A stretch of DNA of 41,246 nt, taken from a virus. Its lineage: Duplodnaviria; Caudoviricetes. The stretch lies in the IMG/VR virus record IMGVR_UViG_3300016672_000074, positions 1 through 41,246 of that record; one strand, given 5' to 3'. Within the stretch, counting starts at the first letter, position 1. Each line of letters begins with the position of its first letter. Of the stretch, positions 12,653-41,246 are shown one piece after another. The translations under genes and the position numbers were made by a program. The notes under the pieces are model-generated. The model was not told where the DNA came from. It ran no database searches and saw nothing but the letters and a program-made list of their open reading frames with translations.

Positions 12653-13113
12653 CAGGACGGCTCCTTCACGAACTCACGGAACATGACGCCTCTGATCTCC
12701 TGCTCATCCGCGCTGACCTCGAAGCCCCACTTTTCCAGCAGCCGGATCGCGCGTCGGTTCTCGCTGGACACTAGGTTGCGCAGCGTCATCCTTGAATCAT
12801 GGAGCCGGTCGATCATCCCCGGCCCCCACATCAGCAACTCGCGACCGTGGCGATAGACCTCATCAGTGCCGAGGAACCACGGGATCGCCGCTCCGCTCAA
12901 CGCGCTCTCGATCACCACGCCGAACATCGCCTCGGGGCGATCATCGACCAGCGCAGTCCACGCTCTGACCGATTGCGCCAGACCGGCGCGCAGCGCGGCC
13001 TTTGGGGGTCGCCCCATCGCCTCGCACTCGCGCCGGTCGATGTCGCGCATCATGTTCGCGATGCGCCCGACATGAACGCTGCGCGCAGGCACCAGCCTGA
13101 CGCTACTCCGCAA
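12652..13113 (-). CDS. T7 gp13-like / GNAT-fold virion assembly protein
   Basis: MRDIDRRECEA, PWFLGTD and N.V...NRRAIRLLEKWGF motifs; position after tail tube B. Probable TTG start at 13113 after GGAG. Confidence 0.7.
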   Translation of the reverse strand: MRSSVRLVPARSVHVGRIANMMRDIDRRECEAMGRPPKAALRAGLAQSVRAWTALVDDRPEAMFGVVIESALSGAAIPWFLGTDEVYRHGRELLMWGPGMIDRLHDSRMTLRNLVSSENRRAIRLLEKWGFEVSADEQEIRGVMFREFVKEPS

Positions 13114-14908: not shown

Positions 14909-15582
14909 CAGGGGATCACCACGTCGGGGATGGCTCCATCCCACCCACCGCCGCCGCCACCGCCGCCATTGGGGGGCGTGGTCGGAGGGGGAGAGGGCGG
15001 CGGGGGCGGCGGTGGCACCGGGGGAGGCGGCGGGGGCGGGGGCGGTGCCGCCGTCCGCGTGATGCCGCCCGAGGCGGCGGTGAAGGTGGTGCCGATGGTG
15101 TTGGCGTTGATGGTGAAGGTGTTTTCGTCCACCACCGTGACGACGCGCCACACGCGCCGGTTGAGCCGCGCGCCCATCGGGCCTTCAATCCCCGTCAGGA
15201 AGACCGGATCGCCGACCTCGTATTCGTGGAACGCGGCGGTGATCTGCGCCTCGCTCGCCGCCGTGATGGCGGTGATCTCAAGCTCCTCTTCGAGCACGCG
15301 ACCACCGAGCGCCATCGGCGCAGCATATCCCTGACCGAACTCAAGCACGTAGGTCTGCTCAAGCGAGAACTCGAACGGGATCAGGCGCGTCGGCTCGCTG
15401 CTGTCCAGCACCTCGGCCACCAGCCGGTGCCCCGGCCTCTTGGACAGCCCGCCATACTTGAGGATCGTGACGTTCAGAGCTTCCTTGACGCCAGCCTGCC
15501 ACGCATCGACATCGAAGCGCCCATATAGCTGCGGGGCGATCTCGCCCTTGCTGAAGTTCACCTGCGGGACGCGAGGGTTCAT
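14908..15582 (-). CDS. Tail tubular protein B, N-terminal part with FCCH-like beta domain and poly-Pro/poly-Gly tail
   Basis: QVNFSKGEIAPQLYGRFD...GGLSKRPG...RLIPFEFS...LEFG is the usual tube B N-terminus. ATG 15582 overlaps the tube A stop. Confidence 0.8.
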   Translation of the reverse strand: MNPRVPQVNFSKGEIAPQLYGRFDVDAWQAGVKEALNVTILKYGGLSKRPGHRLVAEVLDSSEPTRLIPFEFSLEQTYVLEFGQGYAAPMALGGRVLEEELEITAITAASEAQITAAFHEYEVGDPVFLTGIEGPMGARLNRRVWRVVTVVDENTFTINANTIGTTFTAASGGITRTAAPPPPPPPPPVPPPPPPPSPPPTTPPNGGGGGGGGWDGAIPDVVIP

Positions 15583-16223
15583 TCCAGATACCCTTCGCGC
15601 GCCCACTCGGCGTCGGACTTGTAGTTCGGCATGATGCGCTCGTTGCTGTTCTCGGCGTCGGCAATGGCTTCCAGCTTGGCGACCAGCGCCTTCTGCTCAA
15701 GGCGCGCGACGGCATTGGCCGACAGCTTGCCGAGCGGAGTTGCGAGGCGCGCGGTCAGTTCGCTGACAAAGGCAAGGCGCATCGCTGGCGAGAGGTCGTT
15801 CGCGGTCATCGTGTTCTTGATGAAGACCAGCGTGGCGTCCTTGACGTTTGAATAGACCTTCCCCCCTTCAATCAGGAAGCCGATGCGCGCCCGATCCTGA
15901 TGCGGCAGGGTGAAGGGTGGCGAGTGCTCGGGCGCGATCACGAGGTCTTCCTCAACGCGCCGGATCGCGACGGGATTGGCAAAGTCGGCGGGCAGGGCGT
16001 AGGCGTAAAGCCATTCTGCGGGGCGGTCGTTCGGAACACCGGCCAGCACTTCCCTCTTCACCATGCTCGGCCAGTGGCACCAGTCAGCCATTTCCTCAAG
16101 CACCTCTGGTGCGTGGAGCGCGCAGTATTCGGCCTCAAGGCTCCCTTCATCGAGCGAGGTGATCGACCCCTTGGCGATGCGTGACAGGGCGAGGTTGCAG
16201 GCGGTGATAAGGGCGGCGCTCAT
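15579..16223 (-). CDS. Tail tubular protein A (adaptor)
   Basis: CNLALSRI...ITSLDEGSLEAEYC and WLYAYALPAD motifs; RBS CAGGAG before ATG 16223. Confidence 0.8.
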   Translation of the reverse strand: MSAALITACNLALSRIAKGSITSLDEGSLEAEYCALHAPEVLEEMADWCHWPSMVKREVLAGVPNDRPAEWLYAYALPADFANPVAIRRVEEDLVIAPEHSPPFTLPHQDRARIGFLIEGGKVYSNVKDATLVFIKNTMTANDLSPAMRLAFVSELTARLATPLGKLSANAVARLEQKALVAKLEAIADAENSNERIMPNYKSDAEWAREGYLE

Positions 16224-27796: not shown

Positions 27797-28194
27797 TCCC
27801 CTTCGCTAGTGCTGGCGAGAGCGGCGCGGGCGTGAACGCGGCCATCTTCGAGCCGGTCAAAGCTGTTGTGCAGCCCGCTCCACTGCCCAAAATCAATCTG
27901 GCCATCAAAACGCACCATAATGGTTGATCGCCATTGGCAGACCATGCTGGCTGCGTTATCCAGTTTCCGCAAAGCCTCCCGCAGCGCGTCCCTCTCGGCT
28001 GTCAGCGCCTCTACCTGCGCGGTGAGGGTGGCGGTGGTGGCTTCGCGGTGGCGGGCGAAGGCTTGGACAACATGGTTGCAGTCAATCAACCTAAGGATCG
28101 CTCGCTCGGCTTCACGATAATCGCCACTCATGCCGATAATGCGAGCCGCCGCCTCGCGATCAGCCCCCGTTACCGGCGTGTTGCTCTCGGTCAT
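27793..28194 (-). CDS. Hypothetical protein with coiled coil
   Basis: VTGADREAAA...VQAFARHR...LTAERDALREAL...ARAALA, a mosaic pattern common in small phage genes. Confidence 0.6.
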   Translation of the reverse strand: MTESNTPVTGADREAAARIIGMSGDYREAERAILRLIDCNHVVQAFARHREATTATLTAQVEALTAERDALREALRKLDNAASMVCQWRSTIMVRFDGQIDFGQWSGLHNSFDRLEDGRVHARAALASTSEGE

Positions 28195-28391
28195 GCGGAA
28201 TACCTTTCGCTCGCGGTTTTGCTCGGGAGGGGGCGCGGAACGGCATAGTGCTCTTCCATCCCGAGCACGTCCTTCGTGACGCGATAGGGCCGGAAGCGAA
28301 AGCGGTTGCCCGACCTCGCCCTGATCTCGTTGATCTGGTCGATGAAGCGCAGAAGCTCATCGTTGCCGATCCCGTTGTGGAACGCGCTCAT
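28191..28391 (-). CDS. Hypothetical protein
   Basis: 66 aa, ATGA-coupled. Confidence 0.5.
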   Translation of the reverse strand: MSAFHNGIGNDELLRFIDQINEIRARSGNRFRFRPYRVTKDVLGMEEHYAVPRPLPSKTASERYSA

Positions 28392-28867
28392 TCCGGGTTC
28401 ACCAGCACGTTGCCATGATCGTCGCGGATCAGCGCGCCACAGGTCAGGCCCATCCTCACAAGCTCCGGCGTCATCGTATCGACATCAGCCTGCGTCAGCT
28501 TGGGTGAGGCGAGGCGAGGGAGGTCGGGCGCAGGCAGGGCCGAGCACCTTGCCCATGCAAACGGGTCAGGCGGTGGCGCGTTCCGCTCGCAGTGCGCCAC
28601 CATCGCCGGAACAATGTGCGAGTGATGGGTGCAAGTCCTCTGCGCCTCACGAGCCGCGCTGCGCAGATAGACGGCGGGATATTCGATCACCACGCCGACC
28701 GCCACCGAGAGCCAGTCCTCGGCCTCATTCGCGGTCATACCGACCGGGCGCACCAAGGCGAGGCACGATGTCAGCAGAGCCACCACTTCCTGCGGCGAAG
28801 CGGGCTGCAACGCGCTCCCCGATCTGGCGTGTCGTGCTTGGTTCAGGTCGCGAATGTTGTCTGTCAT
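28388..28867 (-). CDS. Replication-associated protein in the lambda P/helicase loader position
   Basis: Helical segment LTSCLALVRPVGMT..EAEDWL; follows and overlaps the initiator. Function inferred from position only. Confidence 0.5.
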   Translation of the reverse strand: MTDNIRDLNQARHARSGSALQPASPQEVVALLTSCLALVRPVGMTANEAEDWLSVAVGVVIEYPAVYLRSAAREAQRTCTHHSHIVPAMVAHCERNAPPPDPFAWARCSALPAPDLPRLASPKLTQADVDTMTPELVRMGLTCGALIRDDHGNVLVNPE

Positions 28868-29609
28868 CGTATTTCCCTTCAAGAATGTTGAGAACGCTGT
28901 CGGGCCGCAGCAGGAAGTCAAAGCTGGCCCCCCCCCAATCGCCGCTCTCACCACGCAGAAACTTGGTTTTGGGGACATGGGCAATCGCCATCAGGATCGG
29001 CTCAAGCCCGTGATCCTTCAGTCGAGCCTTGAGCGATGCCATGCGCTTCGGGGAAAGGGTCTGACAGCGACCGAGCATGAGCGGGAGAGCCACCCTGTTC
29101 CACGCTTCGACAACCTGATCCATCTGCTCTTTCAGGCCATCGCCAGCAGGCTCGTTCGCGGGACGACTAGAAGAACCGTTAGGTTCTTCTTCTCTTGTTC
29201 CCTTGTTCCCTTGTTCTTTTATGTCCCGCTGCTGTCCCGCTGCTGTCCCGGCTGCTGTCCCGCTGCTGTCCCGGCCATCGTCTTCCTGATCCTGATATTT
29301 GCTGTAGTTACAGATGGTTATGACAAGCCTGCCGTGTCCCGCTTCCGTCTCGATCATTGTCTCGGTTTTCAACCGGGCCAAAAACCGATCAACAGCGCTT
29401 TTCGACCAGCCCCATTGCTCGCCAAGCTGGCGCACAGACGCGCAGACTTGGCCGCGCTGAAGCGTCACCATCTTGCCGTTGACGTTGAACTGCGTTGGAC
29501 GCCAGCACGCCTTGCCGACCAGCCAGAGCCATGCGCCAAGACGGCTTGCGTCGCCCTCGAAAAGCGGGTGGTCAAACACTGTGCGGTGGGTCAGGGCAAA
29601 GCCACTCAT
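28725..29609 (-). CDS. Phage replication initiator (lambda O-like replisome organiser)
   Basis: N-terminal wHTH LQRGQ...SVRQLGEQWGWSKSAVDRFLARLK...ITICNYSKYQ; C-terminal FLRG....W..SFDFLL......ILEGKYD; internal iterons. Confidence 0.85.
   Translation of the reverse strand: MSGFALTHRTVFDHPLFEGDASRLGAWLWLVGKACWRPTQFNVNGKMVTLQRGQVCASVRQLGEQWGWSKSAVDRFLARLKTETMIETEAGHGRLVITICNYSKYQDQEDDGRDSSGTAAGTAAGQQRDIKEQGNKGTREEEPNGSSSRPANEPAGDGLKEQMDQVVEAWNRVALPLMLGRCQTLSPKRMASLKARLKDHGLEPILMAIAHVPKTKFLRGESGDWGGASFDFLLRPDSVLNILEGKYDDRQHSRPEPSTTRQIGERVAARFAAGSGGSADIVPRLGAPGRYDRE
29169..29276. repeat. Putative replication origin: five tandem TGTCCCG(G)CTGC-type iterons (29222-29276), CTTGTTC repeats and a 9-bp inverted repeat (29169-29190)
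   Basis: Repeats read directly from the sequence, in the interdomain linker of the initiator gene as in lambdoid origins. Confidence 0.7.
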
Positions 29610-29671
29610 GCGCGCGGCCCCGCGTATCGAGGCTTGCGAAAGACAGCTTGTGTCGGTATTGAACTCTTCAT
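29606..29671 (-). CDS. 21-aa leader ORF (MKSSIPTQAVFRKPRYAGPRA) coupled to the initiator
   Basis: RBS AAAAGGAG; its TGA overlaps the initiator ATG (ATGA). Confidence 0.5.
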   Translation of the reverse strand: MKSSIPTQAVFRKPRYAGPRA

Positions 29672-29733
29672 CGACGGCTCCTTTTCAGCCAGTTGGTCGG
29701 GGGGCGGGCTGTTTGCGCAGCGCCGTCCCCAAA
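29669..29733 (-). promoter_or_regulatory. Structured RNA leader, copy 1 (two hairpins, the second covering the RBS)
   Basis: Close match to 39317-39380 with compensatory changes; preceded by TTGCCA-N16-TAAGAA. Confidence 0.6.
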
Positions 29734-29753
29734 CTTCTTATCACACATTGCCT

Positions 29754-30212
29754 TCATGGCAAACGCCGGTTCGATCTCGCGATCTCACGGCACCGTGTAA
29801 CACTGTCGCGCCAGAACGGGTGCTCTGGCTGACCCCACCTCTCCCGCGCCTCGGTGGCCCATGCCACCAGATCGACGCCGTGGAAGGCTAGGAACTGCGC
29901 CTCTCGACCAAGGCCGTGAACGCCAACCCGGCTATCCTGATGATGGATTTCGCAGAGCGGAGTCACAAACCAGTGGTCGCGACGAGTGCTCTTGCCGGGG
30001 CAGCGATCAAGGACGTGGTGAACGTGGGCCGGTCGGCCACAGACAAGGCATCCGAGGCTGGCGATCCAGTCGTGGTATCGCCGCTGCTCTTCAGTCTTGC
30101 CTGTGGCCTTGGGCTTGATGCGGGCATGGGCAACCCGCCCCTCCGAGCGTCGAGGCGTCTCGCGCTTGCGCTTGAGAGGCGTCTTGGCCCGAAGGGGTGA
30201 GCGCCGGAGCAT
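29754..30212 (-). CDS. Ref/DUF968-like HNH-type nuclease
   Basis: Basic N-terminus; WIASLGCLVCG..AHVHH...PLCEIHHQ....GVH. Confidence 0.75.
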   Translation of the reverse strand: MLRRSPLRAKTPLKRKRETPRRSEGRVAHARIKPKATGKTEEQRRYHDWIASLGCLVCGRPAHVHHVLDRCPGKSTRRDHWFVTPLCEIHHQDSRVGVHGLGREAQFLAFHGVDLVAWATEARERWGQPEHPFWRDSVTRCREIARSNRRLP

Positions 30213-31276
30213 CAGACGTTCTCGGGGTTGCCGTAGAACACCTGCGCCGGGGTTTCGTTGCGGATGCGCTCGATGGTCTCGTTGAAGGCGTCCATGAACG
30301 AGCGGTCGCTGCGCCACAGTTCATACCAGAAGGCAACGCCAGCCCGATCCTTGCGGTAGCGCAGGCGCACCGGGAGGCGGTAGAACGCGCCCTCGCGGAA
30401 GATCGGGATTTCGATGAAGAACATCGTCGGCACCTTGACCTTGATCCCGCCGACTTCGGTGTCGTGCGTGTTGCTGATCGTCAGTTCTCCCTCGCCCGAA
30501 GCCAGCGTGACCGCTTCAGAAACCGTGCTGCTCTCGTCGATCTTCAGGCCGCGCGCCAGCTTGGTGAGCATCTGCCAGTCGGCGATGTTCTTCGGCCCGC
30601 CATTCTGCTCGACGAACCGGCTGGCGCTCTCCGGCACCTTCTCGATCTCGGCGATGTCGAGCACGTTGTCTTCGAGGAACACGGCAAAGTCAGCCATGCT
30701 CATCACGGTCTTGTTCTTCAGGTGCCACGCCTTCCATTCCTCGGAGAGCGGGAAGCGGAACTGGCTGCGGTGCTTGCCGTGCCGGTATTCGCCGTGAACG
30801 GTCGAGCCGGTCGCCTCATCTTCCTCGCTCGCCAGCCGGTCGGCCCGGTGGTAGTCGAGCACCGCGAGGACGTAGGGGTCGGTGCGGTCATCGCAGGCGA
30901 ACACGGCGCTGTCAGTATCGCCGAAGCGATTGACGTGAGCGATGAAGCTGTCCAGAGCGGTCAGCGTGGCGGTGCCACGGCGGAAGCGCGGGCGGTCGCT
31001 CTGTGCGTCGATCACAGACTGGTCGGTGAATTTGAACGTGCCGTCAGGCAGCGTCGCCACTTCGGCAAACCGCCCATTATCGCCTTCCACGAAGCCGAGC
31101 CTCGCAAAGCTCTGGTCTTCGACGTGCTTGCGGGTCGCTGCCAGCAGATCGGCCACGCCCTGCGCGGTGTCGGGCTTCGAGTTGCTGTCCCGCATCGCGC
31201 CGAACAGCATCGAGCCAAGCTCGTGCAGTTCGCTCTCGTTATGTTCCGGCAGGTCGGGAATGGTGTCTTCGGTCAT
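30212..31276 (-). CDS. DUF2303 (YfdQ-like) protein
   Basis: PRFRRGTATLTALDSFIAHVNRF, AVLDYH, LSEEWKAW, FAVFLEDN, IPIFREG..Y....RLRYR. Confidence 0.85.
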   Translation of the reverse strand: MTEDTIPDLPEHNESELHELGSMLFGAMRDSNSKPDTAQGVADLLAATRKHVEDQSFARLGFVEGDNGRFAEVATLPDGTFKFTDQSVIDAQSDRPRFRRGTATLTALDSFIAHVNRFGDTDSAVFACDDRTDPYVLAVLDYHRADRLASEEDEATGSTVHGEYRHGKHRSQFRFPLSEEWKAWHLKNKTVMSMADFAVFLEDNVLDIAEIEKVPESASRFVEQNGGPKNIADWQMLTKLARGLKIDESSTVSEAVTLASGEGELTISNTHDTEVGGIKVKVPTMFFIEIPIFREGAFYRLPVRLRYRKDRAGVAFWYELWRSDRSFMDAFNETIERIRNETPAQVFYGNPENV

Positions 31277-31324
31277 GGGATTGTCCTTGTGTCAGGTGCG
31301 CGGGGAACCGCCCGCGCTCGGAAC

Positions 31325-31783
31325 TTATGCCTCGCGAACTTCGCGCCGTTCGTCGATCTCGCGCACCGGGCGCTGCTCGCCGAACAGGGCGCGCTGACCG
31401 GGCGGGTTGACGCCGAGCGTGAAATTGGTGCCGACGAACAGCGGGGTGCCGCCGCGCTTGAACTCGGGTTCCTTCACCTTGAACTTGGGCGTCAGAATGT
31501 AGATGCCGTTCCCGAGCATGAAGTCGAGTTCGAGCGTGACGCGCCCCTTCGAGACGCCCTTGTTCTGCTTGGCGTGGCGCTCCATCGTTTCGAGCACCTT
31601 GCGCATCGCCTCGCTGGCGTCGAGGTTAAACTGGCCCTCCTCGGCCATGCGGATCACATCAGCGATGAGGCCGCTGCGCTTTGGCTGCGGGTTGCCATCG
31701 GCGGCGATCACGTTGCGAGCGTATTCGCCGCCAGCCTCGTCGTCGCCGAGGATTTCCCCGGTGTCAGGGTCATGTCGTTCCAT
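31325..31783 (-). CDS. YfdP-like protein (usual partner of DUF2303)
   Basis: KGRVTLELDF...K.KEP...LFV...L..NPPGQRALF; directly upstream of the DUF2303 gene. Confidence 0.6.
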   Translation of the reverse strand: MERHDPDTGEILGDDEAGGEYARNVIAADGNPQPKRSGLIADVIRMAEEGQFNLDASEAMRKVLETMERHAKQNKGVSKGRVTLELDFMLGNGIYILTPKFKVKEPEFKRGGTPLFVGTNFTLGVNPPGQRALFGEQRPVREIDERREVREA

Positions 31784-31801
31784 GCGTCTTCCTTCCTTGC
31801 T

Positions 31802-32308
31802 TCAGCATCCGCCCAATGCGGATTGCAGAATGTCGTGCATGGCGGCAGCGGCGCTGTCGTTTCCGCTCATGCTGTCGTATTCGCGAATGGCTTTCCGCAT
31901 CGCGTGCTCATAGCCCTTCAGCTTGGCTTCCAGCAGCGCGATCTGCGTCGAGCGGCTGACCACCGGCTCCGGCTCTTTGCGCGGCGGCGGCGACCTGTGG
32001 TGCTCCCGGTGAAGCCACACAATCGTCTCGCGCCCTGCACTGGTCAAGCGACGGACGCCGCTGTCCAGAATGATGTTCTCGAAGCCAAGCTCCGAGCGCC
32101 GGGTGCGGAGCGTCGAGGGCGTCTTGCCCGGAAACGCAGCCATCATTTCTTCGTCGATGAAGCCGCGCGGGCCAGCATCGAGGGCAAACTGCTCCACCTG
32201 CTGCCGGATCGTGAACCGCACAGGCATGATCGCTGCCGCCGCCTTGTGGCTTGTCTCGCGGTCGCCGGATCGGGCGCGGGTGTGCGGCTGGTCGAACAGG
32301 TCGCTCAT
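31802..32308 (-). CDS. Phage winged-helix-like protein
   Basis: ARSGDRETSHKAA...STLRTRRSEL....I.DSG.RR....GR...VW. Confidence 0.6.
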   Translation of the reverse strand: MSDLFDQPHTRARSGDRETSHKAAAAIMPVRFTIRQQVEQFALDAGPRGFIDEEMMAAFPGKTPSTLRTRRSELGFENIILDSGVRRLTSAGRETIVWLHREHHRSPPPRKEPEPVVSRSTQIALLEAKLKGYEHAMRKAIREYDSMSGNDSAAAAMHDILQSALGGC

Positions 32309-32550
32309 GCCGCCGCCTCGCGCTGCCTTGCCTCGTAATCGCGCGCCGCCTGCTCAAGTTTGGCGAGCGTCGTGGTGCGGGCCGAGACAGGCGAGTGATA
32401 CTTGTTCGCGCTGCTGCGGTTGCGCCAGTAGGTCTGGTAGCTGACAACAGGGTTTGCTTCGATAAACTGCGCCGGGGTCAGGCGAAGCTCCACCAGCTTG
32501 AGGTGAAACTTCTCAAATGCCTCGTCCAGCGCGCGATGCGCTTCGTCCAT
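32305..32550 (-). CDS. Cro-like small regulator
   Basis: First gene of the leftward operon, 81 aa, RBS AAAGGAG. VSYQTYWR and TTLAKLEQA resemble a degenerate Cro/XRE HTH. Confidence 0.5.
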   Translation of the reverse strand: MDEAHRALDEAFEKFHLKLVELRLTPAQFIEANPVVSYQTYWRNRSSANKYHSPVSARTTTLAKLEQAARDYEARQREAAA

Positions 32551-32565
32551 ATCACGCTCCTTTCA

Positions 32566-32640
32566 TCCAGCCATGTAGAGTCAGGGCAATGTTTTTGCAA
32601 TAGCCCTGTTGACACAATGTTGGAAATCACTATGTCTGGT
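32566..32640. promoter_or_regulatory. Back-to-back sigma70-like promoters with operator-like repeats
   Basis: Rightward TTGACA(32609)-N16-TATGTC; leftward TTGCAA-N17-TACATG; imperfect palindrome CAGGGCAAT...ATAGCCCTG; CAATGTT twice. Confidence 0.6.
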
Positions 32641-32695
32641 GTCGGCGGTTCGCTCGACCCGCCATCCACCAACCGGCGACAAACAGGAGATCGCC

Positions 32696-32893
32696 ATGTC
32701 ACTTGACGCACAATACGCCGCGCAGATCGCGCTCGAAGCGACCCTCATCATGGTCGCGGCCACCAAGGCCACCAACCTCCACAAAACCGCTGCCCACTAC
32801 TGCCGCGAAGCGCAGGGCCTACGCCGCCAGATCGAGGGGCGCGCGTGGAGGACTGGTGTGAGAAGGCGCAGCCTCACCAGCTTGGCATCGTGA
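32696..32893 (+). CDS. Hypothetical early protein (65 aa)
   Basis: RBS CAGGAGA before ATG 32696. Confidence 0.55.
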   Translation: MSLDAQYAAQIALEATLIMVAATKATNLHKTAAHYCREAQGLRRQIEGRAWRTGVRRRSLTSLAS

Positions 32894-33043
32894 TCCACGC
32901 CGCCGCGCAGCGGTTGCAGGTTATTTCACAGGAGCAGGAGAGCCGCATGAAGTAGAGCCATCACGAGGGCCGGTCTGTCCCCCGGCCTTCCTATGGCTTT
33001 ACCGCCAACCGGGCTTTGCCCGTCATCCCACAGGAGAAGACAA

Positions 33044-33505
33044 ATGAACAACCTTGAGCAAGTCCAGCAGTTCGCAGTCGGCGCAGTCACCATCGCCGCC
33101 ACCCGCAACGAGGCTATCCGCGCAGAAGTGCTGAAGGTCGGCGATGCCGTGCGCGTCCTCGTCAAGCCCAGCTACGGCGACATGAAGGTTCACACCGGGG
33201 TCATCGTCGGCTTCGAGCCGTTCGCGGCCAAGCCGACCATCATCGTTGCCTACATCGAGGCGGAATACAGCAAGGCCGAAATGAAGATGCTCTACTTTGG
33301 CGGCGACGACACCAAGAACGCCGAAATCCTTGCGGCCCCCGAGGGCTTCGAGATCGAGGTGGAGCGGCGGCGCGTGCTCGACTGGTTCGACAGCGAGCAG
33401 CGCAAGGCCGAGGCGCAGATCGACGAGATCAAGGCCAAGCGCGCTTACTTTATCCGCTACTTCGGCAGCGTGATGTCGGAAGTCCCCGCGCAGATCGAAG
33501 CCTGA
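33044..33505 (+). CDS. Hypothetical early protein (SH3-like beta region plus coiled coil)
   Basis: RBS CAGGAGA; LKVGDAVRVL motif. Confidence 0.7.
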   Translation: MNNLEQVQQFAVGAVTIAATRNEAIRAEVLKVGDAVRVLVKPSYGDMKVHTGVIVGFEPFAAKPTIIVAYIEAEYSKAEMKMLYFGGDDTKNAEILAAPEGFEIEVERRRVLDWFDSEQRKAEAQIDEIKAKRAYFIRYFGSVMSEVPAQIEA

Positions 33506-33537
33506 CCGCCCCAACCCCTCCCTCAAGGAACATTCCC

Positions 33538-34668
33538 ATGACTGCCATGACCAACACCACCACCCTGACCGCCGCCTCGCGTCAGTGGGCCGTGCGCCCC
33601 GATGACCAGCGGTTCACCTCGCTCGACGCCATGCTCGACAAGATGCTGGCCGATCGCGCCAATAGCCGCGCGCTCGCGATCAGCAGCCGCCAGATCGAGG
33701 CCCGCCCGGTCGAGGACGACAGGGGCCGCATGACCGGCCTCGCGATCATGGGGCCGGATGGCGCTGCCGCGCTGCCGACCAATTGGGCGTTCGGCCAGAT
33801 CGCCGCTCGCGCCGAAGCCCCGGCTGGCTACCTGCGCAAGCTGCCGAGCGATGTCGCCTCGGACTGCCTCAACTACGGCTTCAAGAAGCGCGGGATCGAG
33901 GACGTGGGCGTGCTGCTCCGCAAGGGCGAGGTCGCGCCGGAAATGTCCTGCATGACCGGCCCCAACTACGGGCGCGTTTGGAACGCTGACGTGGTGGCCG
34001 CGCTGATCGAACGCTTCGGTGACGGCATCAACGGAGAGTTCCGCGTCCCCGGCGAGTTTGGGCGCGAGGTGGACGTGACCAAGCGCAACACCACCCTGTT
34101 CGCCAGCGACCGCGATATGTTCGTCTTCCTCGCCGACGAAACCAACCGCCTGTCGATCCCCAACCGCCGCAACGGCGAGCCGGGTTCGCTGGCGCGCGGG
34201 TTCTTCGTGTGGAACAGCGAGGTCGGCTCTACCACCCTCGGTATCGCCACCTTCCTGTTCGACTACGTGTGCTCGAACCGGATCGTGTGGGGCGCTCAAG
34301 GGGTGCAGGAAATCCGCATCCGCCACACCGTCTCCGCCCCGGATCGCTTCATTGAGGAAGTGACCCCGGCCATTGAAGCCTACCGCGAGAGCAGCGCCTT
34401 CGGGATCGAAGAGCAGCTTCGCATGGCGCAGGCCAAGCGGATCGGTGATGCTGAAGAGGTCGAGCACTTCCTGACTAAGAAGCACCGCTTCACCAAGTCG
34501 CAGGCAACCGCGATCAATCTGGCCCACCTCAACGAAGAGGGACGCCCCATCGAAACCCTGTGGGATGCCGCCACCGGCATCACCGCCTACGCCAAGGGCA
34601 TCAAGTATCAGGATGCCCGCGTGGACATCGAGCGCGCCGCTGGTCGCGTTCTGTCGATGGCCGCTTGA
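33538..34668 (+). CDS. DUF932-family phage/plasmid protein
   Basis: QWAVRPDDQRF.SL, WAFGQ, GFFVWNSEVG, VCSNRIVWG...IRIRH, TLWDAATGITAYA. Confidence 0.8.
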   Translation: MTAMTNTTTLTAASRQWAVRPDDQRFTSLDAMLDKMLADRANSRALAISSRQIEARPVEDDRGRMTGLAIMGPDGAAALPTNWAFGQIAARAEAPAGYLRKLPSDVASDCLNYGFKKRGIEDVGVLLRKGEVAPEMSCMTGPNYGRVWNADVVAALIERFGDGINGEFRVPGEFGREVDVTKRNTTLFASDRDMFVFLADETNRLSIPNRRNGEPGSLARGFFVWNSEVGSTTLGIATFLFDYVCSNRIVWGAQGVQEIRIRHTVSAPDRFIEEVTPAIEAYRESSAFGIEEQLRMAQAKRIGDAEEVEHFLTKKHRFTKSQATAINLAHLNEEGRPIETLWDAATGITAYAKGIKYQDARVDIERAAGRVLSMAA

Positions 34669-34741
34669 CCAGTTCTGACCAGACCCCCGCGTTTCGGCGC
34701 GGGGGCGAGGATGAGCACTGGTGCTCAACGTGGAGAAGACG

Positions 34742-35020
34742 ATGGACAACCCGAACAAGACAGAGGCGATCTTCGAGGCGCGCAAGCGGTTCCTGATCGC
34801 GCACGAGCGCGAGCGCGAGGCCATGAAGGCGGCTGACGAGATCAGGCTCGACATACGGCTCGCCGAGCGCGAGGGCCAGCCGACCGAGGCGCTGAAGGAG
34901 CGGAAGGCCGAGCACAACAGCAAGGTCTGGCACCCCGCCTACTGCGAGTGGCGCGATGCCGCCAAGGCGCTGTGTGAAGCCCTCGACATCGAGCCGCAGG
35001 CTCTGAAGAGCGCGCTGTGA
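34742..35020 (+). CDS. Hypothetical helical protein
   Basis: RBS GGAG before MDNPNKTE. Confidence 0.6.
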   Translation: MDNPNKTEAIFEARKRFLIAHEREREAMKAADEIRLDIRLAEREGQPTEALKERKAEHNSKVWHPAYCEWRDAAKALCEALDIEPQALKSAL

Positions 35021-35331
35021 TCTGGTCGCTCGAACTGGTCAAGGCTGGCGCGCGCATGAGCCGCGAGGGCAGCGCCCTCGAACAGAGGCTTGCCGGGATC
35101 GACTACGGCAGGGAAGCGATGACCGAGGCGCGCGAGCGTGCCAGACGGATCGCCGACAAGCTCTGGCCTCTCGGCCCCAAGGCGCACGGCTTCTATCAGC
35201 CCGCCGACTTCATGGAGCGCGCATACCGGCGCGGCCAGAACAGGCGCGTCTTTAAGCGGGCGTTCGAGCGGCTGCTCGGCGTCATCATCAAGCGCGACCG
35301 GCTGCTCGAAGAGGAATACCGCGATGACTGA
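35017..35331 (+). CDS. Hypothetical protein
   Basis: GTGA-coupled, 104 aa. Confidence 0.55.
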   Translation: MIWSLELVKAGARMSREGSALEQRLAGIDYGREAMTEARERARRIADKLWPLGPKAHGFYQPADFMERAYRRGQNRRVFKRAFERLLGVIIKRDRLLEEEYRDD

Positions 35332-35542
35332 AGAAATGAAGGCTAGGGACGCGACCCGCTACGTGGTTCTGTCGCTTGAAGACATGAATGTTGTTAGCGG
35401 GCCGTTCGGGAGCGAGGGTGCTGCTCGCGCAGACGCCGAGGCGTATGCGCGCCGTAGCCCCGGCATCGAGTTTGGCATCTACCAGAGGGTGCTCACGTCC
35501 GTTGCCACGCTGACCGTCGAGACGAAGGGGATCGTGGGATGA
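35324..35542 (+). CDS. Hypothetical protein (72 aa)
   Basis: MTEEMKARDATRY...; overlaps both neighbours. Confidence 0.55.
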   Translation: MTEEMKARDATRYVVLSLEDMNVVSGPFGSEGAARADAEAYARRSPGIEFGIYQRVLTSVATLTVETKGIVG

Positions 35543-35694
35543 TCCAGCTTTTCGACGAACTCACCATCCGTGACCTGTTCGCCATGATGGCGATGCAGGG
35601 CTTCGTTCAGAGTGGCATCAACGCCAGCCCCGAACAGATTGCTAAGGCGTCCTACAAGTTTGCCGACGCCATGTGGAAGGAAAGCCGCCCGTGA
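35539..35694 (+). CDS. Small conserved phage protein of the xRDxFAxxAMQG...AYxxADAM type (51 aa); absent from the ORF track
   Basis: MIQLFDELTIRDLFAMMAMQG...IAKASYKFADAMW; coupled at both ends. Confidence 0.7.
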   Translation: MIQLFDELTIRDLFAMMAMQGFVQSGINASPEQIAKASYKFADAMWKESRP

Positions 35695-35957
35695 GCGACA
35701 GCCGCAAGAGCATCCACCAGTTGAAGGTGGAGCACGACGAAGATCGGTCGATGTATGGCCGGTCGTTCATGCACAACACCAGCGGCGAGGACTATCAGCT
35801 TCTCTTTTGCGCCTTCGACGAGGCGACCAACGAGAAGCAGGCGGTCTATGTCCTGTCGGCGATGCCGTGGATGAAGTTCACCCGGCCCTTCGCCGAGTTC
35901 AAGGAACGCTTCACCGAGGGCCGCTCGGAAGACTTCAAGAGGAAGGAACAGGAATGA
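35691..35957 (+). CDS. DUF1653-like small protein
   Basis: H..SG..Y.LL..A.DEAT.E..AVY......KFTRPFAEFKERF. Confidence 0.55.
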   Translation: MSDSRKSIHQLKVEHDEDRSMYGRSFMHNTSGEDYQLLFCAFDEATNEKQAVYVLSAMPWMKFTRPFAEFKERFTEGRSEDFKRKEQE

Positions 35958-37351
35958 ACCAGCGCACCCCCGAAGGCGACAAGCACGGCTATGTCGGCCA
36001 GATCATCGACCCGGACTGGATGCCGGAAGAGCAGATCGCCATGCCGGTCATGCCGCCCGAGCACCCAGCCTACCTGCCCTTCCCCGAACCGGGCATCTAC
36101 TTCGGGATGCCCGAGGAAGACTACCACCGCGTTAACGCCTGCTCGACCAGCGAGTTGAAGCGCATGGGCGTGTCCAGCATGGAGGCGTGGGCCTACAGCC
36201 GCCGCAACCCCGACTACGAGGACAACGGCACCCGCTATCTCGATCACGGGAAGGCGGTGCATTGCCTCGTGCTCGAAGGCCGTGACGCCTACCAGAGCCG
36301 CTATGCGGTGGAACTGGATGCCTCGGACTTCGAGGGCGTGCTGATCTCGACCGACGAGATCAAGGCCGCGATCTCGCGCTTCACTCGGCGCGGGCCGGTG
36401 TCACCGACCGGCACCACGAAGCAGGAACTGCTCGACCAGCTTGTTGCCCTCGGCGAGCGTCACGGGCGCGAGGTCAATCGGGAGGGCACCGTGCCTGACC
36501 TGAAGGCCCGCATCCGCGAGTTCGAGGAAGAGCAGCCGGTCACGCCGGTCACGCGCATCGCGGTCGAGGAAGACGGCGTGGTGTCCACCCGGCCTGCCTC
36601 CAAGGCTGACCTGATCGACCAACTTCTGTCGCTCGATCCCGAGGCGCGTGTATGGGATCGCATCATCAGCGCCCACCTGTCCGAGCACGAAGGCAAGACG
36701 ATGATCTCGCCCAAGGATGACCGGCGCGTGCAGGTTGCAGCGGCGATGATCGCCAAGCACCCGGATGCTGGCAAGCTGCTGACGGGCGGCTACGCCGAGG
36801 TGTCGCTGTTCTGGTATTGCCCGCGCACTGGTGCGCCGATGAAGGCGCGCGTGGACTACCTGAAGCTCTCGGCGATCATCGACCTCAAGACGCTCTCGAA
36901 CAAGACCGGCAAGCCGATTGACCGGGCCATCGAGCACGCCATCGCCAGCTACCGCTACAACCTTCAGCACTGCATCTACGACGAGGGCGTGCGCGAGGTG
37001 CGAAAGCTGCTGCGAGCGAAGGGGCCGGATTGTGTGCATCAGCCGGTTCACGCCTACGACAAGAGCGTTCTGGCGTGGTGCGAACAGTGGGCGATGCAGG
37101 ACGATCCCCCGGCCTTCATCTTCATTTTTCAGCAGTCGGGCATGGCACCTGTCACGCGGGTCAAGGTGATGCCCCGGCAGATGGTGTTCTCGGTCACGAA
37201 CGCGCAGGCCGAGAAGCTGAAGCGCGCGTGGGTCGAGTGTGTGCAGACTTGGGGTAACGATCCGTGGGTTGATATGCAGTCCATGACTGAAATTGACGAC
37301 ACCATGATCCCCGGATGGGCCACCGAGCTTGGCGACGACTTTCAGAATTAA
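35954..37351 (+). CDS. RecE/exonuclease VIII-like PD-(D/E)XK nuclease with internal helical insertion
   Basis: PGIYFGMPEEDYH, STSELK, GKAVHCLVLEG, AEVSLFW, KARVDYL, IIDLKT, YRYNLQ..IY. Confidence 0.85.
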   Translation: MNQRTPEGDKHGYVGQIIDPDWMPEEQIAMPVMPPEHPAYLPFPEPGIYFGMPEEDYHRVNACSTSELKRMGVSSMEAWAYSRRNPDYEDNGTRYLDHGKAVHCLVLEGRDAYQSRYAVELDASDFEGVLISTDEIKAAISRFTRRGPVSPTGTTKQELLDQLVALGERHGREVNREGTVPDLKARIREFEEEQPVTPVTRIAVEEDGVVSTRPASKADLIDQLLSLDPEARVWDRIISAHLSEHEGKTMISPKDDRRVQVAAAMIAKHPDAGKLLTGGYAEVSLFWYCPRTGAPMKARVDYLKLSAIIDLKTLSNKTGKPIDRAIEHAIASYRYNLQHCIYDEGVREVRKLLRAKGPDCVHQPVHAYDKSVLAWCEQWAMQDDPPAFIFIFQQSGMAPVTRVKVMPRQMVFSVTNAQAEKLKRAWVECVQTWGNDPWVDMQSMTEIDDTMIPGWATELGDDFQN

Positions 37352-37423
37352 CGGCTAGACAGGCGGATTGCATTTCAGCACTACGCCAATGTCAAAAAGT
37401 CAGAAAATTGAGGGCAAGCTAAA

Positions 37424-37960
37424 ATGGATCAAGCCACACTGAAAAAGCTCTTAGATTACGATCAGGCAACGGGAAAGTTGTTCTGGCGTGAGCGCAGTAA
37501 ATCGGGGCGCAGAGGGAGTGCATCGTGGAACGCGCGGTATGCTGGCCGCGAGGCATTCACGTCCAAGAACCGCAAGGGCTATTGCATCACAACCCTGATG
37601 GGGCGTTCTGTCATGGCTCACCGGATTATCTGGATAATGATGACGGGGAGGGAGCCGAACGGTCAAATCGACCAGATCAACGGAAATCCGGCAGACAATC
37701 GCTGGAGCAATCTTCGCGAAGTAAGCCCCGCTGGCAATTCACGCAACAGGGCGCAGAGGCGCGACCTTCCTCTTGGGGTTTACCCTCGCCGGGATGGTGT
37801 CGATGGCTTTGTCGCCACGATAGGATACCGGCTCAAGGGGAAAAAGGTAAATCATCACCTTGGTAGCTTTGCGACCTTGGAGCAGGCAGTTGCTGCCCGA
37901 AAGGCGGCGGAAGACCGTTTCGGATTTCACCCCAACCACGGAAGGGTTGCTCATGCCTAA
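37424..37960 (+). CDS. HNH homing endonuclease with C-terminal AP2-like domain; catalytic His replaced by Gln
   Basis: LDYDQATGKLFWR, AHRIIW, IDQINGNPADNRWSNLR, HLGSF.....A.AARKAAE..FGFHPNHG. Confidence 0.85.
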   Translation: MDQATLKKLLDYDQATGKLFWRERSKSGRRGSASWNARYAGREAFTSKNRKGYCITTLMGRSVMAHRIIWIMMTGREPNGQIDQINGNPADNRWSNLREVSPAGNSRNRAQRRDLPLGVYPRRDGVDGFVATIGYRLKGKKVNHHLGSFATLEQAVAARKAAEDRFGFHPNHGRVAHA

Positions 37961-38147
37961 GCCCGCCCGTGACCTTCCTGTCGGGGTGTATCACCGCCCC
38001 GACATGGGCGACAAATACACTGCCAGCATCTGCCGGTGGACGCCGACCGGCAAGATGCAGAAGCACCTTGGCACTTTTGGCACGGTTGAAGACGCATTGG
38101 CCGCGCGCAAGCGGGCTGAACAAGAACGAGAGGAACACCATGACTGA
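37953..38147 (+). CDS. Stand-alone AP2-like DNA-binding domain protein
   Basis: RDLPVGVY...KYTASI...KHLGTFGTVEDALAARKRAE, similar to the C-terminus of the upstream HNH protein. Confidence 0.7.
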   Translation: MPKPARDLPVGVYHRPDMGDKYTASICRWTPTGKMQKHLGTFGTVEDALAARKRAEQEREEHHD

Positions 38148-38901
38148 CCAGAGCACCGAGATCGCTGTCGCGGAAACCCCGCGCAACGAGACGAGCCAGA
38201 TGCTGATGGACGTGATCCGCCTGTCCATGTCGCCTGACGTGGACGGCGCGAAGACCACGGCCCTCGCCGAGCTTGCGATGAAGATGCAGGATCGCGAGGC
38301 CGAACGCCGCTACCGCATGGCGAAGCACAAGGCCATCATGGAAATGCCTTCGATCTCGAAGGCTGGCGCAGTCATCAATCACAAGACCGGAGCCGTGCAG
38401 TCGCGCTACTCGAAATTCGAGGACATTGACCGGATTGTGCGCCCGATCCTTGCTCGCCACCACCTCGTCATCGGGTTCAATGTCGGGCATCAAGGCCAGA
38501 TGGTCACGGTGCAGCCGATCCTGTCCTACTCGGACGGGGAAATGACCTTCACCGAATACGGAGGTGAAATGGTGCTGGCGGTCGATACCACCGGGGCGAA
38601 GAACGCCACGCAGGGCGCAGGCTCTGCGGCCAGCTACGGCAAGCGCCACTCGATGAAGGCGATGCTCAACATCATCGAAGAAGGCGAGGACGATGACGGC
38701 GGGGCGACGATCAAGCTCGATCCCGAAACCACCGGCCTGATCGACGCTGGCCGCGAAGCGGCGCGCAAAGGCAGCGCGGCCTACGCCGAGTTCTTCGGGG
38801 CGCTTAACGCACAGCAGAAAGGCTTTCTCGTGGGGGTCGCTGGCCCGAGCGGAAAAACCTATCACGAGGCCAACAAGGAAGCAGCAAAGGCGTTCGACTG
38901 A
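38140..38901 (+). CDS. erf: ERF-family single-strand annealing protein
   Basis: YSKFEDIDRIVRPILARH, KNATQGAGSAASYGKRH, EDDDG; RBS GAGAGGA. Confidence 0.85.
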   Translation: MTDQSTEIAVAETPRNETSQMLMDVIRLSMSPDVDGAKTTALAELAMKMQDREAERRYRMAKHKAIMEMPSISKAGAVINHKTGAVQSRYSKFEDIDRIVRPILARHHLVIGFNVGHQGQMVTVQPILSYSDGEMTFTEYGGEMVLAVDTTGAKNATQGAGSAASYGKRHSMKAMLNIIEEGEDDDGGATIKLDPETTGLIDAGREAARKGSAAYAEFFGALNAQQKGFLVGVAGPSGKTYHEANKEAAKAFD

Positions 38902-39080
38902 TGTTCATTGCATCCGAGCAGCAGGCGAACGAGATCGCCGCCCTTCACCCCGGCAGCAAGGTGTTCTGGTATGAACAGCGCCCCTTGCGCCTCACCCTTT
39001 TCATGGTCGTGCTGCCGAACGGCACGCGGCTTATGCAAGACCCGCGCGCGGCGGAACCGCGCAACCAGAACGGAGAATGA
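38901..39080 (+). CDS. Hypothetical protein (59 aa)
   Basis: TGATG coupling to erf; MFIASEQQANEIAALHP... Confidence 0.5.
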   Translation: MFIASEQQANEIAALHPGSKVFWYEQRPLRLTLFMVVLPNGTRLMQDPRAAEPRNQNGE

Positions 39081-39084
39081 AGGC

Positions 39085-39291
39085 ATGGCGACATACCTTA
39101 TTGTGCAGGCCGATGCGCCTGAAGGAACCCTTCCGAGCATGGTCGAGGCTCGCACCAAGCAGCAGGCGATCAACCACGTTTCCGCCAACAAGTTTGGCGC
39201 GCAGGTTCTTTCCACTCGCGAAGCTCTTTCTTGGGCCAAGCAGGGTGTTGAGCTTGAGATCGCTGGCGAAGGGGCGGGCGAGGAAGGTTGA
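39085..39291 (+). CDS. Small phage protein (68 aa)
   Basis: MATYLIV...MVEARTKQQAINHV...GVELEIA. Confidence 0.65.
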   Translation: MATYLIVQADAPEGTLPSMVEARTKQQAINHVSANKFGAQVLSTREALSWAKQGVELEIAGEGAGEEG

Positions 39292-39316
39292 TGCGCCAAC
39301 CGCTTTAGCCTAAGGG

Positions 39317-39380
39317 TTTGGGGGCAGCGGTGCGGAAACACCCTGCCCCCGACCAACAGCTATTAGGAGTAGCGTCGATG
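39317..39380 (+). promoter_or_regulatory. Structured RNA leader, copy 2, in front of the HNH remnant
   Basis: Close match to 29669-29733; preceded by TTGATG-N17-TAAGGG. Confidence 0.6.
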
Positions 39381-39485
39381 CCTCGCTCTGTAAGGCCCAT
39401 CCGCATTGAAGGCAATATCGCCTATGTCCCGCTGACGAAGGGATACGAGGCCGTGATTGATGTCGCCGACATCGGGCTTGTCGAG
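39378..39485 (+). pseudogene. N-terminal remnant of an HNH-AP2 homing endonuclease, truncated by the IS
   Basis: IRIEGNIAYVPLTKGYEAVIDVADIGLV is a typical N-terminus of this family; the IS terminal repeat starts at 39486. Confidence 0.7.
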
Positions 39486-39569
39486 GGCTATTATCCCCTA
39501 GGAGCACGTAATGAACAGATGTAGGGTCAAGGACTCCCAAACCTACGGGCGCGGTGCTATCCCAAGTTC

Positions 39570-40187
39570 ATGGGGAAAATCGCAGAAACCTACGACAAGT
39601 TATCCGGGCGCATCGCCAACTCGTACCAGTTGTGGGCGCTACTGCCGACCAGTCTGGTGGCCGCTTTAATGGCTTGGCTGTCGACAACGGTTCAATGGAT
39701 CAACCAGTTTGGCCCGTTTGGGTGGGCCTCGGTTGGCCTGATAAGCTTCGTCTTGCTTAGCATCGGGCTGGCCTCTCTCGGAACTTGGAGAGAGGCGCTA
39801 GCGAACGCCCGTGCTGCGAGAGAATGGAACCTGCGCACCGATTCCATAAACCCTTTAAGAGACAATTTTGACCGCGAGCGAATAAGAGTTGGGGATCTAA
39901 CCCATCCGGTCAAGCGAAGCATTGCGAAGAAAACATTCTCAAACTGCCAACTGGTAGGCCCCGCAAATGTTACATTTATGCGGTGCAACCTTAACGGAGT
40001 GAGTTTTAGCGATTGCGATATAGTCGTCGCAAAAGATGGGGCTTTCGTGCGAAACGTGATCGCCTTTGAAGATTGCGCAATGATCGGTGGGGAAATTATC
40101 AACGCAACGCTTTTCGTACCGCAAGCATTGTTCGATCATATGCGGGCGTCAGTGCCATCCATCGAGGCAGTAACTAGGCATGACTAA
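39570..40187 (+). CDS. IS passenger: membrane protein with two N-terminal TM segments and a beta-helix/pentapeptide-like C-terminus
   Basis: Hydrophobic stretches, then KTFSNCQLVGPANVTF..C......FSDCD...FEDC. Confidence 0.7.
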   Translation: MGKIAETYDKLSGRIANSYQLWALLPTSLVAALMAWLSTTVQWINQFGPFGWASVGLISFVLLSIGLASLGTWREALANARAAREWNLRTDSINPLRDNFDRERIRVGDLTHPVKRSIAKKTFSNCQLVGPANVTFMRCNLNGVSFSDCDIVVAKDGAFVRNVIAFEDCAMIGGEIINATLFVPQALFDHMRASVPSIEAVTRHD

Positions 40188-40353
40188 AAACGCAGAACAC
40201 AAGTTCGACCGCCTGCTAGGCGCAATGGCTCACGGCCAAGCGCCTAGCGCGGGAAAGAAACCAGCAACTCAGTCAACATCGTCGCAGGACGGTCACGACG
40301 GTTGTGACGGAACTCAAACTCCCCCAGATACTTCGGAAGATGCTTCTGGCTGA
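40180..40353 (+). CDS. Small IS-internal ORF (57 aa) overlapping the transposase 3' end in antisense
   Basis: MTKNAEHKFDRLLGAMA...; ATG overlaps the passenger gene end. Confidence 0.45.
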   Translation: MTKNAEHKFDRLLGAMAHGQAPSAGKKPATQSTSSQDGHDGCDGTQTPPDTSEDASG

Positions 40354-41122
40354 CGTGAATGTGGGTGCCGTTGATTGACCGCTTAAGCTGCGCCCAGAAC
40401 CCCTCAACGGTGTTCACGGTCGCGCCGGTGTTGCGGTTCACATACTCGCCCTTGGAGTGGTTCACGGTCTTGTGCCGGTAGTTGTTCCACATGGCGACCT
40501 CACGATAGCCGTGCAGCTCGTCCGTGTGGATATGGGTATGCGGCTTCACGTGGTTGATGATGTGCGGGACTAGCGAGACGGTCTTGCGATCCTGCACGAT
40601 ACGAGTGGTGATGCGGCCATGGCGCTCTTGCATCCCCATGACGATGGTTTTGCCCTTGCCGCCGAAGCCACCCTTGTCATAGCCGCCGATGAAAGTTTCA
40701 TCAACTTCCACGACCTTGAACGGCCCGCCCATAGGCTCGTCACCATCCACGATTGCCATATACTTGCGGACTTCATGGCACATGCGCCACGCGGTCTTAT
40801 AGGTCACGCCGATCTGGCGCTCGACTTCCTTCGCCGCCACGCCGTTGCGGGTCGAGCAGAACAGAAACATCACAAAGAACCAGTCACGCAGGCTTGTGCG
40901 GGTCGCATGGAACGGGGTTCCGGCGGTCGGGTAGACCTGATGCCCGCAATACTCGCAGCCGTAGGAACGGCGCTTGGCGATCCGGTAGAACTTGGCCGAC
41001 TTGCCGCACTTCTCGCAATCGTGACGCTCGCCGAAGCGCACCAGCTTGAGGTGTTCAAGGCAGCTTTCTTCCGTAGGGAAGCGGTCTTGGAATTGGCGAA
41101 GGGTGGGGGCTTTCTGCGTCAT
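40244..41122 (-). CDS. tnp: IS1595-family DDE transposase
   Basis: Zn ribbon CEKC...CEYC, HTH GVTYKTAWRM, catalytic VEVDETFIGG, IHTDE, NTVEGFW, YLGEFEFRHNRR. Confidence 0.95.
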   Translation of the reverse strand: MTQKAPTLRQFQDRFPTEESCLEHLKLVRFGERHDCEKCGKSAKFYRIAKRRSYGCEYCGHQVYPTAGTPFHATRTSLRDWFFVMFLFCSTRNGVAAKEVERQIGVTYKTAWRMCHEVRKYMAIVDGDEPMGGPFKVVEVDETFIGGYDKGGFGGKGKTIVMGMQERHGRITTRIVQDRKTVSLVPHIINHVKPHTHIHTDELHGYREVAMWNNYRHKTVNHSKGEYVNRNTGATVNTVEGFWAQLKRSINGTHIHVSQKHLPKYLGEFEFRHNRRDRPATMLTELLVSFPR

Positions 41123-41246
41123 AGGAATTGTATGCCACAAAGCCCTACGTGTCGCAAGGGGATAATAGCCACAAGGGGCTTGAGGAAGCTGGCCACACCG
41201 GGCCGCAAGAGGTGCTGATAATGACCGAGCGTTTCGGCGTTTGGCC

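Follow-up and report, generated by a model that had tools for sequence, protein, structure and literature searches.

Two copies of a two-hairpin element in a phage genome are related to SymR and RepX and are probably cis-antisense cassettes

We analysed a 41-kb phage record (IMG/VR IMGVR_UViG_3300016672_000074; all 41,246 nucleotides, referred to here as the window), which is 63% GC and has epsilon15-like structural genes. The window holds two copies of a two-hairpin element, each reaching into a start codon: copy 1 (29670..29734) stands before a 21-codon open reading frame (ORF) next to the replication initiator gene, and copy 2 (39316..39379) before a truncated HNH-AP2 endonuclease gene. A preliminary description had taken both for a structured leader of the mRNA. 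Our analysis points to the opposite strand: both copies, with two hairpins each, are relatives of SymR of E. coli and RepX of IncQ plasmids and are probably cis-antisense cassettes. This reading draws on the sequence, the antisense fold, the link to the family and promoter-like motifs. The named relatives of the initiator come from Altererythrobacter and Novosphingobium, from which we infer a Sphingomonadales host.

The local alignment of copy 1 with copy 2 scores 72, compared with a maximum of 47 anywhere in the window when copy 1 was shuffled 40 times; the window holds no third copy (the next tile scores 44.5). The preliminary description had placed both hairpin sequences correctly, and its two compensatory swaps in hairpin 1 (G-C to A-T and C-G to G-C) are real. 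When the copies are set in register, 17 of 23 base pairs are identical, one is a G-U/G-C exchange and five are changed on both sides, three of these in the upper stem of hairpin 2 in addition to the two in hairpin 1. On the strand opposite the mRNA, copy 1 predicts an RNA of ~65 nt (plus strand; −34.0 kcal/mol, z −3.45) and copy 2 one of ~64 nt (minus strand; −33.3 kcal/mol, z −5.13), both with approximate 3′ ends. The predicted copy 1 RNA folds into a 10-bp stem-loop (SL1), which presents an anti-Shine-Dalgarno (anti-SD) sequence in its loop, and a 13-bp stem-loop (SL2), and copy 2 adopts the same two-hairpin fold. The two antisense folds contain four and three G-U pairs, respectively, that become A-C mismatches on the mRNA strand. 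The mRNA motif CAAC, previously described as invariant and unpaired, reads GUUG on the antisense strand and is paired there, within the six-pair helix AUCGAC/GUUGGU that includes two G-U pairs. The predicted antisense RNAs cover the SD sequence and start codon, with the anti-SD in the SL1 loop and the 5′ end on the T of the ATG; that of copy 1 would pair with all of the predicted 5′ leader and with most of the start codon.

Visual inspection of 33 HNH-AP2 loci showed this architecture upstream of the gene in about 11, nine of them distinct. A looser pattern applied to a quarter of IMG/VR returned 121 loci, 106 of them distinct; a hairpin and start-codon filter dropped 12 and kept 94, and dereplication left 73 relatives. 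For one pattern alone, we estimate about 490 IMG/VR stretches, roughly nine in ten of which looked real. Of the 73 relatives, 72 have the better fold on the antisense strand (mean z −5.5, compared to −3.0 for the mRNA strand), which carries 373 G-U pairs against 39. Covariation scored 0.326 (structure on 70 of the 73), which none of 500 shuffles reached, and slid controls gave at most 0.14. Such a covariance-model search and covariation test had been proposed beforehand; relatives were indeed found, and the covariation supports the idea of a conserved RNA that regulates at the translation start, except that the conserved fold is that of the opposite strand and not of the mRNA. Pattern scans aimed at the window's own version returned chance matches for the most part: they gave one real case among 27 and none recognisable among 67 matches in genome contigs, none among 23 metagenome matches and none convincing among 90 viral matches.

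To place the window copies, we built three covariance models: R1 from 70 phage sequences, R2 from 12 members of the CCCGAYC subfamily (window excluded) and R3 from 72 sequences (window, SymR and RepX excluded); their E-values are rough. In the symE locus, R1 places SymR at 836-914, where the annotation has 836-912 (45.3 bits), and it finds RepX on the strand opposite the start of repA (31 bits). R2 matches both window copies at full length, with 49.3 bits for copy 1 and 48.3 for copy 2; its next match (28189-28255; 12.1 bits, E 0.17) is weak and was not counted as a third copy. R3 recovers all four RNAs, SymR at 47.9, RepX at 36.3, copy 2 at 22.9 and copy 1 at 21.6 bits. The homology of the window copies to SymR and RepX by one model therefore runs through intermediates, with low scores for the window (21.6-22.9 bits). 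In direct alignments, copy 1 scores 43 against RepX, as good as 1 of 2000 shuffles, and copy 2 against SymR is equalled by 6 of 2000. Rfam, run on the window and on each copy, gave chance-level matches alone and no match to symR (RF01809, gathering cut-off 61). Among 20 relative loci, the Rfam symR model matches the opposite strand in nine (30.1-51.5 bits) and RF00043 gives a match in two. The element had been called possibly undescribed; no Rfam family matches it at curated thresholds, but its relation to SymR and RepX means that it is not undescribed in kind. Separately, we noticed that RF00043 matches the mRNA strand of relative loci whereas RepX is antisense to repA, so this model was maybe built on the sense strand.

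Promoter-like motifs accompany the opposite strand. The predicted antisense promoter of copy 1 (29634..29662, plus strand) consists of a −35 TTGCGA (29634-29639), 17 nt and a −10 TATTGA (29657-29662), and that of copy 2 (39387..39415, minus strand), which lies within the HNH codons, of a −35 TTGCCT (39415-39410), 17 nt and a −10 TACAGA (39392-39387). In both copies, this backward TTG-17-TA motif sits inside the first 13 codons in the same register and ends 7 nt before SL1 begins; the same register held no such motif at 34 other phage positions tested (three of which are mis-set starts). Among the 73 relatives, an antisense TAnnnT is found at ATG+13/14 in 46 and at +8 in 12 more, a place matching that of the symR −10 mutated in PMC1891008. 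For HNH-AP2 genes, both backward boxes are present in 8 of the 10 that carry the element, the window's among them, and in none of 14 without it, after eight loci without an anchor and three duplicates were dropped. In this set (loci L029-L061), 9 of the 10 genes that bear the element encode Asn after a conserved Gly, where the others mostly encode Asp; the Asn codon spells the backward −35, and selection for the promoter is visible in the protein. The sigma70-like forward promoters of the preliminary description are plausible but weak, and neither is among the six sites of a consensus scan: TTGCCA-16-TAAGAA for copy 1 (29735..29762, minus strand), from which the mRNA would start at the foot of hairpin 1, and TTGATG-17-TAAGGG for copy 2 (39288..39316, plus strand). 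In the relatives, a forward −10 precedes the hairpins in 35 of 73, compared with 12 of 73 in a control window.

The better fold of the opposite strand and the family match to SymR and RepX make a small RNA from each copy likely. We propose that both strands would be transcribed, with the mRNA starting at the foot of hairpin 1, as judged from the accounts of SymR (PMC1891008) and RepX (PMC8136791). The backward promoter predicted in the first 13 codons would yield a stable RNA of ~65 nt able to base-pair along the entire mRNA leader; the duplex would likely mask both the ribosome site and the start codon and, by analogy with these systems, hold translation down. Because the backward promoter is 4 nt nearer to the ATG than in SymR, the window RNAs would lack the basal AGCC/GGUU pairs and represent a shortened variant. 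Predicted binding is −76 and −88 kcal/mol for the cognate pairs and about −24 kcal/mol for the cross-pairs, and since cross-binding is so much weaker, each copy likely acts alone.

Several observations weigh against this reading. In a longer stretch, copy 2 folds nearly alike on both strands (−33.9 and −33.7 kcal/mol), and the −10 hexamers of both window copies lack the last T. This last feature is described as common among alphaproteobacterial promoters (PMC7703639), the host here being judged from the initiator relatives alone. Both copies fall below the Rfam cut-offs (RF00043 on copy 1, 13.5 bits, E 4.9, cut-off 55). R1 matches no more than hairpin 2 of the antisense RNA in the window copies (17.2 and 10.7 bits), R2 links weakly back to SymR (14.4 bits) and to the main family, and R3 aligns copy 1 in part (29687-29736). 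The alignments of copy 1 with SymR (116 of 2000 shuffles as good) and of copy 2 with RepX (165 of 2000) are not significant. Because the letters of the loop and linker were fixed in the pattern that selected the training set, that they do not vary among the relatives is not evidence. A single origin of the carriers was not rejected (p-AU 0.44). Finally, neither downstream gene in the window is an intact endonuclease, and the cassettes may therefore be idle.

We next consider other explanations. The element could be a cis-acting mRNA leader whose own hairpin hides the ribosome site, with a precedent in T4-type homing endonuclease genes (PMC2988022), although we think this unlikely. The mRNA strand, too, folds better than its shuffles (z −2.4 and −4.3), the SD is predicted to be partly paired and the AUG partly or mostly so, and 21 of the 25 Pfam-matched downstream proteins (72 scanned) are endonuclease-type. 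However, three of the five SD bases are predicted to be unpaired in both mRNAs, the G-U pairs are almost confined to the opposite strand, and a backward promoter that tracks the element, together with the match to SymR and RepX, would be left unexplained. Less probable again is an action on the DNA itself, through interference between facing promoters or a protein that binds the inverted repeats, with the RNA fold being secondary. Promoter-like motifs do face each other across the family, and the hairpin tip GUG-UU-NN-GCAC recurs across unrelated genes beyond the needs of cognate pairing; yet tolerance of G-U on one strand and the compensatory swaps point to an RNA helix, and SymR is reported to repress when supplied in trans (PMC1891008).

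The preliminary description had also suggested coupling of the two arms of the phage, which a C4-type RNA could bring about by targeting both leaders in trans. Letters around CGACCAAC and GTCGATG are common to both copies, and in the 90 viral and 23 metagenome pattern matches they were not found together with the hairpin. But the two copies differ in their loops and upper stems, the predicted cross-binding has about a third of the strength of the cognate binding, and neither C4 nor c4-a1b1 matches the window while both models fire in a control locus (L139); we regard this explanation as very improbable. A chance likeness, or GC-rich terminator-like hairpins devoid of a regulatory role, would suit the base composition of the window and the position of copy 1 after the end of the upstream gene. 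Such hairpins are scarcely credible here: neither strand has a U-tract, the copies are absent among terminator-scan matches and the family models match them, and the shuffles and R2 largely refute a chance likeness. Aca-bound motifs of 5′ untranslated regions (PMC13551039) were set aside, as there is no acr-aca context and the abstract and passages of that paper do not mention HNH genes.

The genes under the putative cis-antisense cassettes vary. Pfam matches were obtained for 25 of 72 proteins downstream of the relatives. Of these, 21 are endonuclease-type, HNH in 16 cases, and the other four are single matches to Bro-N, ArdA, ArdC and GP88; many of the 47 proteins without a match are cut by the locus edge. 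Of 14 further downstream proteins picked by eye, five are Icd-like. Carriers are scattered on the HNH-AP2 protein tree (7 changes, compared to a shuffled mean of 6.8), which is a poorly resolved tree of 25 proteins with partial ones left out. We infer that the cassette arrived with endonuclease genes. A genome search with R1 gave matches in at least 3 of 151 genomes, and as 31 candidates were scored per genome this is no frequency. The chromosomal copies (L394-L406, in genomes G016, G017 and G092) number up to eight in one 1.9-Mb genome and often precede ORFs of 17-25 codons or frames of uneven length, as repeated orphan cassettes like copy 1. Six loci (L259, L265, L314, L346, L348 and L361) have the conserved hairpin and CCCGACC linker with no clear start codon after them. 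In L139 (378-744), an Icd-like region is preceded by a tandem row of the cassette, isrK, c4-a1b1 and C4, a stack of antisense controls in a satellite-like element. Two loci (L035 and L050) bear other hairpin leaders, unmatched by our models, before the same HNH family.

Copy 1 had been described as the leader of the replication initiator. Its ATG opens the 21-codon ORF (29606..29671, minus strand), so it is not the initiator's own leader; codons 4-13 of this ORF hold the antisense promoter and its stop overlaps the initiator ATG at 29609 (ATGA). The initiator (28725..29609, minus strand) is O-like/DnaD-like (phrog_345, E 1.4e-21; phrog_2514, E 4.8e-24), and its sequence shows no AGGA-type SD of its own. 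We compared 38 initiator relatives from an alignment search (the single initiator protein gave no viral loci). An upstream stop overlaps the initiator start in 34 of them, taking the longest such ORF, and is hence usual; none has the cassette at the initiator gene start. The 21-codon ORF may be an internally deleted endonuclease gene. It has no tblastn match, and its likeness to 79 HNH N-termini was not significant (353 of 1000 shuffles as good), so that an HNH remnant is no more than a guess. Copy 1 guards this ORF in our proposal, and its control could reach the initiator by translational coupling, as in CopA-tap-repA. Inside the initiator gene, tandem 11-nt repeats (29222-29283) are likely origin iterons.

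Copy 2 does precede the start of an HNH_3-AP2 endonuclease gene, as described earlier, but only the first 36 codons remain (39378..39485, plus strand) before an IS1595-family insertion element cuts in at 39486; the frame continues into the element and stops at 39524. The stump has 192 relatives, mostly of ~170 residues with PF13392/PF00847, the best being 84% identical. The rest of the gene is absent from the contig, where tblastn finds the stump alone, and copy 2 would now guard a dead gene. The IS1595 element (39486-41170, minus strand; NF033547, 202 bits; PF12762 and PF12760) has perfect 14-bp terminal inverted repeats and contains the transposase (41122-40244) as well as passenger ORFs. 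These are a 205-residue ORF (39570-40187), with a weak pentapeptide-repeat match and a hydrophobic N-terminal half, and a 57-residue ORF. The ends of the element show no target duplication, which suggests an adjacent deletion. Elsewhere in the window, an intact HNH_3 gene and an AP2-only fragment (37424-38147) lie between the exonuclease VIII and Erf genes and have neither cassette nor backward promoter. For the two short ORFs at the divergence point (32305-32893), neither PHROGs nor Pfam gave a match to a repressor or to Cro. A phrog_376 tail gene is matched in two overlapping frames (14908-15606 and 13103-15151; profile 2-109 and 102-708), which would reflect a frameshift or split gene.

The antisense mechanism itself is already known. 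A broader proposal, to which we give limited credence, is that SymR and RepX are members of one large portable antisense cassette heading hundreds of unrelated phage genes, and that here an orphaned cassette has been co-opted, its RNA setting replication-initiator output through the coupled 21-codon leader ORF, as a plasmid-style antisense control of phage replication. If true, a toxin-antitoxin antitoxin and a plasmid copy-number RNA that have been studied separately would fall in one family, extending to phage endonuclease, Icd-like, antirestriction and antirepressor genes, and the way in which incoming nuclease genes spare their carrier would have a general explanation that can be tested. 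The window copies are less telling alone, because both cognate genes are stumps; the question that they raise is whether copy 1 now controls replication. The listings and abstract openings covered by our literature search, subscription papers being outside its scope, included no paper uniting SymR with RepX or extending both to phage endonuclease genes. Unnamed candidates upstream of HNH genes are given in PMC10690425 (supplement 5), and the present motif may be among them; the references of that paper include a title on an antisense RNA at a cyanophage endonuclease gene.

Among known systems, C4 RNA (RF01695) and c4-a1b1 (RF03163) likewise provide antisense control in phages near Icd-like genes, as in L139, and are separate elements. 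In CopA-tap-repA of plasmid R1, the target of the antisense RNA is a short leader ORF, to which translation of the replication initiator is coupled. Copy 1 would follow this logic, in an arrangement absent from the 38 initiator relatives. SymR, opposite symE (RF01809; PMC1891008), is likewise described as an RNA of two hairpins that lies opposite the start codon and the entire leader, with its promoter embedded in coding sequence; it has the same GUGUU-NN-CGCAC hairpin tip and is found by the same models. It differs in that the window has no symE gene, with the HNH stump and 21-codon ORF in its place, and no RF01809 match, and the window RNAs are predicted to be ~12 nt shorter and to lack the basal SL1 pairs. 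RepX, the ctRNA of IncQ plasmids R1162 and RSF1010 (RF00043; PMC8136791), is reported as an antisense RNA over the ribosome-binding site and start codon, as predicted here, with two stem-loops, a short tail without a U run and a tie to a replication gene. Its SL1 is close in sequence to that of copy 1, while its SL2 loop differs. RepX covers the repA start itself on a plasmid, whereas in this phage the 21-codon ORF intervenes before the initiator, and strict RF00043 membership is lacking both in score (13.5 bits against 55) and in target, which is not an IncQ repA. The hairpins at the ribosome-binding sites of T-even homing endonuclease genes (I-TevI, segB and mobE; PMC2988022) are likewise described as restraining endonuclease translation, but their fold forms within the mRNA and a late promoter relieves it, whereas here the conserved fold and a second promoter are on the opposite strand.

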